Virus record (IMG/VR): IMGVR_UViG_2778261642_000012
Coordinates: 1-20,069 of that record
Length of the DNA stretch: 20,069 nt
Direction: 5' to 3' (one strand)
Origin: a virus
Lineage: Duplodnaviria > Heunggongvirae > Uroviricota > Caudoviricetes
Position 1 is the first letter of the stretch. Each line of letters starts with the position of its first letter. Positions 8,401 through 11,400 of the stretch are shown here, piece after piece. A program made the position numbers.

Positions 8401-11400
8401 CGCGGATTTGCGGGACTGGTGATGTTCTTGCCGAACATGCAACCTTTCGCTGTCAGCGACCAGAATTTTTTGATGTTGTTAATCGCGGTACGGCTGTATC
8501 GTTCGCGTTGTTCAACGATCCCCAGCTTCGCCATCTGGTGATATGCCTGATTAGCCGTCAGGCGGATACCATACTGCTTCAGCAGTGCACTCAGCGACAG
8601 CGTAGGGCGGCTTGAACCATCTGGCGCATCAGCAGGTGCATCAATGGCATAGATCGGCATAAGTTCAGGAAGACCAGCTACCTTTGATAATTTCTGGTAT
8701 GCACCAAGTTTCGAGGAGTTTGACAGATTTAGAGTCTTTGCTGCTGATTCAAGCAGAATGACCCCGGATTTAATTTTGTCGGATGTGGTTTCTTCTGGTG
8801 ATGAATTATGAAGCGCATCAAAAGTACGTATCACTTTTAAGCTGAATGCCGGGCTGATCCACATTGCATATGCATAGACCAGCTCTTTACAGACATACGT
8901 CCCACCATTGCGCCCCTGAATGGTGATGACAGGAATACTACGGGAATCTCCCGTAGTTTCTTCTTCCAATAATTCCACAAGAGCCTTCGTTTCAGGACGA
9001 CGCATAAACTCGTGAACTTCCAGCGAACGGGAGGAGCGATTCTCACCAGCGGCAAGAAGAGCAGCTTTCTGAAGGTCGTTAAGACAGTAGTTAGATTCGA
9101 AGTACTGGCGCACAGAAACGCCATCAATTACAAGCAACTGATTCATTGGTTTCTCCACAAATTTTTATCCACGAGCGGGACTGCACTCCCTTTTCGTTGA
9201 TGCAGGATGAACTTACTGCGATTTTTAATAGTTATCAAGGATACACTGTTCATAAATACAGTATCTTTAACGAGGTAATACCCAAATTTAGGGTGTTGCT
9301 CAATTCCGTTACCGAGTTGCTAATTTGCAACTCGCTTTTTCGTACTTACTGATAGTGATCTCGACCTTCCCCTCCGGGATAACCGGTCCCCACTCCACCA
9401 GCATTCTTTTCACCTGACTGTCGTCTTCCCACACCCCCGCGTGGGTCAGGGCGTCAAACAGCGCCTTGTTATAGTTGTCCAGATCGCGGATCCGGTTATC
9501 CGGAGGAAACAACACGATCTCCACTGAAGCAGGTGCCGACGTTGGTTTTGGCAGACGACGTAACTGCTCAACTATTGCTGCACACGCCGCGCTCTGGAAT
9601 TTTCGCCCCGCCGCGCTTATCAGGCTCTTACCAGCAAACGCCCCTTTGTTGGGGTGTCGCCAGTACGTGTTCACGCTGGGCGGAAAAGGCAGGATCAGCT
9701 TCATACTTTCAGGCCCCTCTCATGTAACCAGTGGGCTGCACGCAGCCTGGCGTTTTCCTCACCGGCAAGCAGTGAGCGGATAATCCCGACCGCCTCGCTG
9801 TCGTCGTCCTTCACCACGGTATGAAGCGTGATCCCCCGGGCCACACCACGCTTTATCGTGATGACGCCTTTTTTCTCCAGTGCGCGAAGATGCTCCACCG
9901 CTGCATTCACTGAACGGTATCCCAGCATGGTTGCCACCTCCTGATTGGTTGGCGGGAAGCCACGTTCTTTCTGATAAGAAATCAGCATATCCAGCACCTG
10001 CTGCTGGCATTGAGTTAAAGTCGTCATGCCGCCATCTCCCTGACCAGTTTTTCCGCCTGCTGGCGAACCTGCGCCAGAAACGCCTCACCACATGCCTCAA
10101 GTTCATCGCGCCCGATGTAGCTGATTGCCGGTCCCTTCCAGGTCTTGTCGAAAACAGCAATAGCACCAGCGAAGAAAGCGCCTGTCGGCACCTGCTTCTC
10201 ATCTTTCGGGATAAACCAGGCAGGCAGTTCAAAACCAATACGCCCGCGAATAAAAGCAATATGATCTGCATCTTCCGGCCACCACACTTCGCTGGTGGCA
10301 GCTTTGATCAGGAAAACATAGCGCCCGCCTTTATCACGCATGGCACTGGCATGTTTCATGATGTAACGCATGCCGGTGATGTATTGCCCCTCATGCTGAC
10401 TGGCGCGGCTGTATGGGGGATTACCAAAGGCAGCACCTTTAAGCTCCGCAAGACGTTCTGACCAGTCATGCGCCAGCGCGTTGTCTTCCGCCGTGTAATA
10501 CGCGGTACATTTGGCGTTATCACCGTCAGTAAACAGATCCAGGACAAACGGGCCAAACAGGGTGTTAATTCCCCAGAAAATGTTATCCGGCGTGCGCCAC
10601 TGATCGCCCACTTCCTTCAGTTCATGGGCTGGTTTGTTCCGCAGCTCCACCAGCTCCTGGCAATATTTATTACTCATTAAGCCCCCACGTAATTCCCTGA
10701 CAGATACCACTCATCACCCGATACAGCGCGCTTGCTGCTTTTCCGTAAGCACCGCTCACGACGTGCCAGAAAATTGTTTCGTTCTGGCTGGGAGTGGCTT
10801 TCACGGAATGCCGCCATCCACACGGTTGCAGCACGACGGTATAAGCCCCTGGACTCCAGTTCTTCAGCCTGGCGGGTCAGGCACAAAATCCCCCGGGGAT
10901 CGTTAGTGCCGACATAGAAATTGCGCACAGGTCTGGTTTCACGAACTGGTTGTGGTTCCGGCTCCTGCGCTCTCTCAGTCAGGCGCGGGAAATGTCTGCG
11001 TGTATATCCTTCACAACGGTGAGCCACACGCCCACTCTGACGTAACTTGCTTGCAGACTGCAGAACGCGCTGCCGTGAGTAACCTGCAAAAGCATCCGCA
11101 ATGTCTCCGGAAGTACACCCCGGATGGGCTTCAATGAATTTCTGAACTTCATTCAAAAGACTCATGATTACCCCCTGAATCCTGCCGGGATCTGGCTGTA
11201 GTCCACGTTGTCGTAACTGGCTTTGAAGTACGGGTCCTCGCGTCTGGCTGCAGATACCGCAGGAACTTCCCAGGATTCTTCGAAATGACGATCCGGACCA
11301 AAGAACGTGACAGCCTGTTTCACAAATTGTGTGCCGCTGTTACCCATCGCAGATACCCAGCCCGCGTAGCGTTTCACACCTTCCAGCATGGTTTCGGGTT

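Follow-up and report, generated by a model that had tools for sequence, protein, structure and literature searches.

The DNA analyzed here, a window of 20,069 nucleotides forming positions 1 to 20,069 of the IMG/VR virus record IMGVR_UViG_2778261642_000012 (Caudoviricetes), covers the early-right and late-control region of a lambdoid prophage, with most genes on the minus strand. Our subject is a LexA (SOS) box in front of the operon that ends in the antiterminator gene Q, together with a nearby gene for a truncated LexA-like protein, here called lexN. The genes run in the order cI (with an S24 domain), cro, a CII/YmfL-like gene, an isrK/C4/Rha antirepressor module, an O-like replication gene, PerC, a Dam-type methyltransferase, lexN, rusA, a gap of about 150 bp, KilA-N, DUF968/HNH and Q; four tRNA genes and then holin, lysozyme and Rz lie 3' of Q. 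On the minus strand, lexN (9701-10027) precedes rusA, which encodes a Holliday-junction resolvase (9309-9704; Pfam RusA, E = 6.4e-15). Beyond the gap (9147-9308) come the KilA-N domain protein (8331-9146; Pfam KilA-N, E = 1.3e-15; phrog_129, "transcriptional regulator"), the DUF968/HNH-motif protein (7334-8329; Pfam DUF968, E = 3.5e-81, and HNHc_6; phrog_96) and, as the last gene of the operon, Q (6568-7320; Pfam Antiterm, E = 5.2e-54), spaced by 1 to 13 nt. The KilA-N protein has 271 amino acids when read from the ATG at 9146, which agrees with the RefSeq start. Its N-terminal domain resembles P1 KilA and the annotated "ant" gene of Salmonella phage Emek, and by similarity only it is annotated as belonging to the antirepressor-like or transcription-regulator class.

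The LexA box occupies positions 9244-9263 (CACTGTTCATAAATACAGTA; TACTGTATTTATGAACAGTG on the sense strand) and was recognized by its core pattern and by a position matrix. The CTGT-N8-ACAG core, with an AT-rich spacer, is located at 9246-9261. The preliminary description of this DNA had correctly reported a palindrome in the intergenic region ahead of the KilA-N/DUF968/Q operon, but had set its start, at 9242, 4 nt too far to the left. Its estimate that the box lies some 450 bp downstream of the truncated lexA gene was accurate, since we measured 438 bp from the lexN stop codon in the same (minus) operon direction. The immunity region is 5 kb away. On an approximate LexA matrix derived from 27 E. 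coli SOS boxes, the box scored 21.6 to 22.1 bits, compared to a minimum of 12.1 and a median of 20.3 for the training boxes, and sites of at least 16 bits occurred only 0.045 times per shuffled window. As a positive control, the experimentally known dinI box of Gifsy-1 was recovered at 24.1 bits. The core pattern itself was found three times in the window against 0.31 expected, a number reached in none of 100 shuffles. The third of these matches (13237-13252) was discarded as a LexA box, since its spacer is GC-rich and its score of 6.8 bits falls short of every training box.

Conservation was assessed in 80 fetched loci with KilA-N relatives from other species and nine more of the window's own allele group, while E. 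coli counts refer to 5426 complete genomes. The box-bearing leader was present in 186 of these genomes, always between rusA and KilA-N, and the module occurs in O104:H4 C227-11, O157:H7 FRIK944, O111:H8, O55:H7 and S88. In E. coli variants that are 90 to 94% identical, the 16-nt core is unchanged, and nine other positions of the leader vary; in phage SfIV, the box has perfect TACTGT..ACAGTA ends. The spacer upstream of KilA-N is bimodal, with either about 17 to 21 nt and no box, or about 85 to 155 nt and usually a box. In 18 long leaders, the best site on the LexA matrix scored 10 to 19 bits and was located at -75 to -166 from the KilA-N start, in many cases at -114 to -117, precisely where the window has its box. 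When each leader was compared with its own shuffles, all 18 sites reached p ≤ 0.015 and 17 reached p ≤ 0.005. They come from about a dozen genera in all (Edwardsiella, Citrobacter, Erwinia, Pantoea, Serratia, Enterobacter, Superficieibacter, Rosenbergiella, Raoultella, Atlantibacter, Leclercia, Kosakonia and Rahnella). Several of these loci (L008, L018, L020, L021, L024 and L040) have no lexN within 3.5 kb; box-bearing phages of this kind come from Rosenbergiella, Pantoea, Erwinia, Serratia and Rahnella. The order rusA, KilA-N, DUF968, Q is kept across Enterobacterales, ahead of three different Q families.

From these data, the box is very probably a working operator for host LexA at the head of the KilA-N/DUF968/Q operon. 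Because LexA-like boxes recur upstream of KilA-N, including in phages without lexN, host LexA is its likely reader. The simplest reading is that a host-LexA operator would be an ancestral and recurrent feature of the long leader, of which the window has the best-preserved version.

Over the segment from 8300 to 10100, identity is 99.5% with coliphage PhiR49_1 and 98.9% with Shigella phage SfIV, and the cI/cro immunity region matches mEp460, Stx2a_1447 and SfII. In these last three phages, rusA and KilA-N are separated by 19 nt with no box, and the KilA-N gene has a different N-terminal allele. Homology with Stx2a_1447 stops within the 3' end of rusA, with a junction near 9340, and the last few rusA codons belong to the mosaic leader module. 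Since the short-spacer phages carry the other KilA-N allele and homology breaks in the last rusA codons, the leader of about 150 bp is, on this comparison, a cassette of mosaic origin that accompanies one KilA-N allele.

Further elements were found in the leader on the minus strand. Two candidate promoters were identified with our own sigma-70 score: Pa (TTGAGC-17-TATTAC, 9275-9303), with a score of 7.8, which is below the threshold of the consensus scan, and Pb (TTGATA-17-TAAGTT, 9210-9238), with a score of 9.3. With Pa, the LexA box would fall at about +5 to +24 and the transcript would contain an upstream open reading frame (ORF); with Pb, 5 nt would separate the end of the box from the -35 hexamer downstream of it. 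Related leaders (L011, L026, L012, L037 and L018) have -10-like hexamers within a few nucleotides of the box.

The upstream ORF (9143-9253; MNSVSLITIKNRSKFILHQRKGSAVPLVDKNLWRNQ) has 36 codons. Its ATG, in the context CTGTATTT-ATG-AACAG, lies inside the LexA box, and its TGA overlaps the ATG of KilA-N. Homologous ORFs are present in most long leaders, where they are either ATGA-coupled to KilA-N or fused to it in frame, which explains KilA-N gene calls of 293 to 301 amino acids. They share the motif C-[KQ]-R-[NS]-G-x-A-x-P and show some synonymous changes at third codon positions, and their serine 3 is always encoded by AGY preceded by C, so that the CAG of the half-site is preserved. The ORF is unannotated in the RefSeq records examined.

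Downstream of the box lies a conserved hairpin, GGGA-GUGCAG-UCCC (9177-9190), followed after about 25 nt by the Shine-Dalgarno sequence GUGGAG (9153-9158). In 23 of 28 enterobacterial loci, an NTGCAG loop closed by a stem of 4 bp or more is found within 100 nt of the KilA-N start, and NTGCAG loops have such a stem in 25 of 37 occurrences in the last 100 nt before KilA-N, compared to 28 of 342 elsewhere. All five pairs of the stem show changes on both sides, and pairing was found in 90.5% of the cells, where shuffles gave 57.9% and slid controls no more than 55.8%; because the sequences were chosen for having a stem, this percentage is inflated, which does not affect the diversity of pair types. 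A covariance model picked the same site in the window, SfIV and mEp460. The hairpin is also present in short-spacer phages, where it overlaps the rusA stop codon (ggcggGTGCAGccgcc), and hairpins with an NUGCAG hexaloop and covarying stems are found 25 to 50 nt upstream of KilA-N in Enterobacteriaceae, Erwiniaceae and Gilliamella. Three identities were considered for this element and dropped. Rfam gave no match to a known RNA family even at E ≤ 10. A nut/boxB site does not fit, as the hairpin travels with KilA-N across differing early regions and none was found near the expected PL or PR positions. Finally, the C4 and IsrK RNAs of the window carry the same-sense GUGCAG rather than its complement, which speaks against the hairpin being their target.

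GTGCAG is also the most strand-skewed hexamer of the window, with 26 copies on the transcribed-sense strand and one on the antisense strand. Four copies (11626, 11650, 11671 and 11716) are part of iteron-like repeats (GGTGCAGGAGATTCACC) inside the O-like replication gene, and further copies are found in hairpin loops at 13399, 7777 and 19309.

We propose that the leader is a regulatory cassette providing a LexA-gated internal promoter for KilA-N, DUF968 and Q, and that lexN is a separate gene; we put the probability of this reading at roughly 55%. The cassette would consist of a weak sigma-70 promoter, a host-LexA operator, an upstream ORF starting within the operator and a hairpin with a GUGCAG loop. 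In the lysogen, host LexA would occupy the box and keep the internal promoter shut. Upon DNA damage, activated RecA (RecA*) would drive LexA self-cleavage and the promoter would fire, so that KilA-N, DUF968 and Q would be transcribed without waiting for transcription from PR to cover about 5 kb past the IsrK terminator. Such a bypass would be needed because this strong terminator (12924-12941) lies between PR and the KilA-N/DUF968/Q genes. The SOS response would in this way be wired to both an antirepressor-like protein and the late-gene activator Q. SOS gating of Q, which the preliminary description had suggested, is plausible, since a high-quality, conserved box fronts an uninterrupted operon; the part of that suggestion in which the phage-encoded LexA-like protein holds the box is unsupported, as detailed below.

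Several observations weigh against our proposal. The consensus scan returned no sigma-70 promoter in the leader and no strong one was found, and as the window has a sigma-70 score of 6 or more about every 120 nt, Pa and Pb are candidate promoters only. In about half of the related leaders, GTG replaces CTG in the left half-site, and such half-sites may bind LexA weakly. The matrix on which the scores depend is itself approximate. Because the upstream ORF begins (ATG-AAC-AGT) within the right half-site, conservation of this half-site could partly reflect coding or translation signals. The phage repressor cI (14254-14946, plus strand) is itself of the cleavable S24 type, and an extra SOS input is therefore not obviously needed. 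What the analysis demonstrates is the sequence elements, how they are conserved and how independently they are distributed; LexA occupancy, the activity of the leader promoter and their regulatory consequence are inferred.

Some of these points would fit a box without function, arising by chance or as a by-product of the upstream ORF start, with KilA-N, DUF968 and Q expressed only by read-through from PR. The lack of a convincing promoter, the coincidence of the right half-site with codons 1 to 3 of the ORF and the many relatives that manage with a 19-nt spacer and no box all agree with this. However, the rarity of sites of at least 16 bits in shuffled windows argues against chance, and LexA-like sites at the same position in many genera include those of leaders L011, L037 and L040, whose ORF starts outside the box. 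In addition, the invariable use of AGY after C for serine 3 preserves the CAG. We consequently consider a functionless box improbable. We hold it to be very improbable that the box controls a short plus-strand antisense transcript, rather than the KilA-N operon. The transcript would end at the only local hairpin with a T-run, which does face the plus strand: a terminator scan detected an 8-bp palindrome overlapping the rusA stop codon (9313-9334; 9313-9341 for the terminator-like hairpin), with the T-run on the plus strand only, and this looks like a terminator facing against all neighboring genes. Weak plus-strand promoter candidates are also present (TTATCA-19-TACAGT and TTAACG-16-TAGGGT), but they score below those of the sense strand, and one has a 19-nt spacer. 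Moreover, the palindrome is missing from related box-bearing leaders, one stem position is changed, and hence broken, in the AZ187 variant, and no Rfam family matched. A plus-strand promoter with an antisense RNA ending at 9313-9341 was therefore rejected.

The closest known architecture to that of the leader is found in Gifsy-1, -2 and -3, where a LexA box with its own promoter in the nin-like region drives dinI and an antirepressor, and where the boxes are preceded by terminator-like palindromes (Lemire et al. 2011, PMC3121763). Tum of 186 and AntC of N15 are cited in the same paper as related LexA-controlled modules (PMC3121763). Common to Gifsy and the window are a host-LexA box outside the immunity region and downstream of the replication genes and its position about 2 kb upstream of Q, on the strand of Q; the Gifsy-1 dinI box is located 2.2 kb upstream of Q on the same strand. 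A palindrome precedes the box in the window too, but with its T-run on the opposite strand. There are also differences. In the window, the first regulated gene encodes the 271-amino-acid KilA-N protein (with the 36-codon ORF, and DUF968) instead of dinI and a small antirepressor, and the operon runs into Q without a gap, unlike that of Gifsy. The cI repressor of the window is of the cleavable type, whereas Gifsy repressors are not cleaved. Transcription of the Gifsy-1 antQ operon starts at a site of its own, 1.6 kb upstream of Q (Hershko-Shalev et al. 2016, PMC4825925). This is an internal prophage promoter for a Q operon, as proposed for the window, and in both an isrK RNA is followed by a Rha/AnrP-like antirepressor gene; however, the antQ start site is not at the LexA box. 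We did not retain antQ as a homologue that could lend a mapped start, since its genes differ (NinG, YlcG and hypotheticals versus KilA-N and DUF968).

The lexN product has 108 amino acids and consists of a LexA DNA-binding domain (Pfam PF01726, E = 2.9e-19 over residues 1 to 65; phrog_362 at full length). No Pfam match to Peptidase_S24 was found in it: the protein ends at residue 108, and the C-terminal S24 domain for autopeptidase activity and dimerization (Ser119/Lys156) is missing, so that it cannot cleave itself, as had been predicted. Against TIGR00498, the LexA equivalog model, it scored 71 bits, below the cutoff of 110.95. It aligns without gaps to residues 2 to 69 of E. coli LexA (E = 7.5e-16), and to this extent the original statement of a nearly residue-for-residue match was right; identity, however, amounts to only 50% (34 of 68 by count, 50 to 51% by Foldseek). 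The AlphaFold2 model (predicted local distance difference test score [pLDDT] of 79.5) contains a winged helix (residues 1 to 68), a low-confidence flexible linker (69 to 73) and two further helices (74 to 87 and 93 to 102; pLDDT of about 87), and it superposes on the N-terminal domain of DNA-bound LexA (1lea and 3jso) with a root mean square deviation (rmsd) of 1.5 to 1.7 Å.

The tail of about 35 amino acids follows the motif [DE]EA[IV]..hR.L[LV].G[DE][DE].AR..A..[FW]L..RG, and because this is kept across genera, we regard the tail as a genuine module. The two-helix tail probably serves as a dimerization element and may replace the missing LexA interface, which would in part answer the question, raised at the outset, of how a protein lacking the interface domain could dimerize. 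A fold search with the tail returned only loose matches (rmsd of about 9 Å) to MntR-, MecI- and MarR-type regulators, which combine a winged helix with a helical dimerizer, and we do not count them as evidence. The sequence LLAGEE, which aligns to VAAGEP of LexA, was considered as a relic of the LexA cleavage site and rejected, since Ala-Gly is not conserved: relatives have AN, IG, NG, DG or CN at the position of Ala84-Gly85.

Five residues of helix III have been listed as contacts in E. coli LexA, S39, N41, A42, E44 and E45 (PMC3091678). LexN keeps four of them (S39, N41, A42 and E45) and carries E44V, as well as P40V in the recognition helix. Compared with bacterial LexA (TIGR00498; 1lea, 3jso), it thus shares the winged-helix fold, the gapless alignment over residues 2 to 69 and these four residues, and differs by the two substitutions, the absent S24 domain, the lack of a conserved Ala-Gly cleavage site and the score below the equivalog cutoff. 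Across the family, positions 40, 44 and 45 of helix III are variable; residue 44 is highly so, and residue 45 is E, D, V, A, G or T. This argues against the lexN family as a whole being constrained to recognize canonical SOS boxes.

An exhaustive search retrieved 259 representative clusters (50% identity) at E ≤ 1e-10, many of them short proteins with only the LexA domain. Some relatives of 140 to 350 amino acids (P0252, P0253, P0269, P0272 and others) contain two separate stretches matching the query in one polypeptide, and such tandem copies of the domain could remove the need for a dimerization domain. Loci L012 and L013 (Raoultella and Enterobacter pulveris) encode a variant of 158 to 162 amino acids in which the two-helix tail is swapped for a longer, unrelated but conserved extension, and in the Edwardsiella locus L037, a bare LexA domain of 71 amino acids is encoded after KilA-N rather than before rusA.

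The lexN gene overlaps its neighbors by ATGA, with dam at 10024-10027 and with rusA at 9701-9704, and is nearly always found in the order methyltransferase, lexN, rusA, whichever family the methyltransferase belongs to. It is located 4 kb downstream of PR, behind the IsrK terminator. Since it lies deep in the PR operon, is translationally coupled to dam and rusA and stands behind a terminator, lexN is not expected to be expressed in the lysogen; its product would be delayed-early and absent from the lysogen, where host LexA would occupy the box.

We found lexN in 2233 of the 5426 E. coli genomes (about 41%), at 2855 places, which makes it 12 times commoner than the box-bearing leader. LexN-bearing phages lacking the leader box are common, mEp460, SfII and Stx2a_1447 being examples. 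As the distributions are independent and each element occurs without the other, a lexN/box partnership is unsupported, and judging from these genomes, the two are independent modules. With the variable recognition helix, this leaves the earlier idea that the box and the 108-amino-acid protein act together as a speculation. Co-variation between the recognition helix of lexN and a CTG or GTG left half-site was considered and set aside because of too few independent cases.

In mEp460 (L098), which has lexN and no leader box, strong LexA boxes were seen in cI, upstream of a dinI homologue (two boxes) and at the start of a DNA methyltransferase gene in the late region, those outside cI being at 23255, 23283 and 41021. 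In these phages, SOS boxes are scattered and modular. In the window, a second strong, near-perfect LexA box (TACTGTATGTAAAAACAGTA, 14463-14482, 24.8 bits) is located inside the linker codons of cI. It is kept in SfII and in the cI gene of phage Eeyore (72% DNA identity), where the flanks have diverged, which suggests selection at the DNA level. This box could mark an internal promoter, a roadblock or antisense control, and it is another candidate target for LexA or lexN.

The closest known protein to lexN, likened here by description, is gp6 of the Bacillus tectivirus GIL01, the one characterized phage-encoded truncated LexA homologue (Fornelos et al. 2018, PMC6182141). Made from an early operon, gp6 recognizes a palindrome of its own, GaCACAn nTGTGaC, and acts as an activator of the late promoter P3, and the late genes of GIL01 are also under the control of host LexA (PMC6182141). 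Unlike gp6, which has no extra tail, lexN has the conserved two-helix tail of 35 amino acids and is found in enterobacterial lambdoid phages.

This precedent bears on what lexN does. That it is a regulator with an operator of its own outside the SOS boxes, acting as an activator or a repressor like gp6, with its proximity to the box an accident of mosaicism, is a possibility that we entertain tentatively. Helix III divergence within the family and the independent distribution of lexN and box are in agreement with it, and the constant order of methyltransferase, lexN and rusA hints at a role inside that gene block. Yet no candidate operator was found, the E. coli subfamily keeps most of the LexA contact residues, and the family is 45 to 66% identical across genera within the wing and helix III. 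We are more doubtful about lexN being a mimic of LexA, insensitive to RecA, that holds SOS boxes such as this one and that in cI and thereby gates Q and the late genes. The superposition of its winged helix on DNA-bound LexA at 1.5 Å, the four retained contacts of the published list (PMC3091678), the tail that could supply dimerization, the two strong LexA boxes of the phage and the distance of only 438 bp between gene and box in the same operon direction all speak for this. On the other hand, lexN is far commoner than the leader and each is found without the other, its delayed-early position behind terminators should keep it out of the lysogen, and its only characterized analogue, gp6, evolved an operator of its own. 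Given the variation at recognition-helix positions 40, 44 and 45, with P40V and E44V in the protein of the window, a strict LexA mimic fits poorly.

LexN may nevertheless bind vacated LexA-like boxes during lytic growth, with no specific tie to the box of the leader. A stronger form of this idea, which we consider unlikely, makes it a RecA-proof surrogate LexA that, once expressed by an induced or infecting phage, dimerizes via its helical tail and re-occupies the SOS boxes vacated by host LexA, shutting off the SOS regulon of the host, the LexA-controlled antirepressors carried by rival prophages and the SOS-wired promoters of its own phage (the KilA-N/Q leader and the cI box). If true, lexN would give the phage both a means of shutting off SOS and a timer for Q. 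In our preferred reading of the leader as a host-LexA-gated cassette, lexN would instead be a separate, widespread delayed-early gene whose product is a winged helix that does not cleave itself and probably dimerizes via its own tail.

Q controls lysis and, in Stx phages, the toxin genes. A LexA-gated promoter reading into Q would thus represent a second, repressor-independent route from DNA damage to late gene expression, and such a route would occur in prophages of pathogenic E. coli lineages. The GUGCAG hairpin and the coupled upstream ORF would bring an unstudied RNA-level layer before the operon. A search of the published literature returned no paper on the enterobacterial lexN family or on the KilA-N leader, so that, as far as the searchable literature shows, a protease-less LexA homologue found in about 41% of sequenced E. 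coli is unstudied. If lexN does bind SOS boxes, models of SOS dynamics, of prophage cross-talk and of antibiotic-induced induction in lysogens would change.

Outside these elements, the four tRNA genes (Met-CAT, Lys-TTT, Thr-TGT and Gly-TCC) are located between Q and holin at 5332-5641 on the minus strand. In Stx phages, the interval between Q and holin is the site of tRNAs and stx; no stx gene is present at this tRNA site in the window. In the antirepressor module, Rfam matches to isrK (12919-12995, 67.9 bits) and to the C4 antisense RNA (12807-12894, 83.6 bits) together span 12807-12995 on the minus strand, within an ORF of 383 amino acids that is annotated in public records as a single "antirepressor" gene. 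Because both matches lie inside this ORF, its upstream half is probably noncoding, and the Rha-domain protein would start near residue 214. This isrK/C4/Rha arrangement is similar to that of ImmI in P1 or of the isrK-anrP locus in Gifsy-1.

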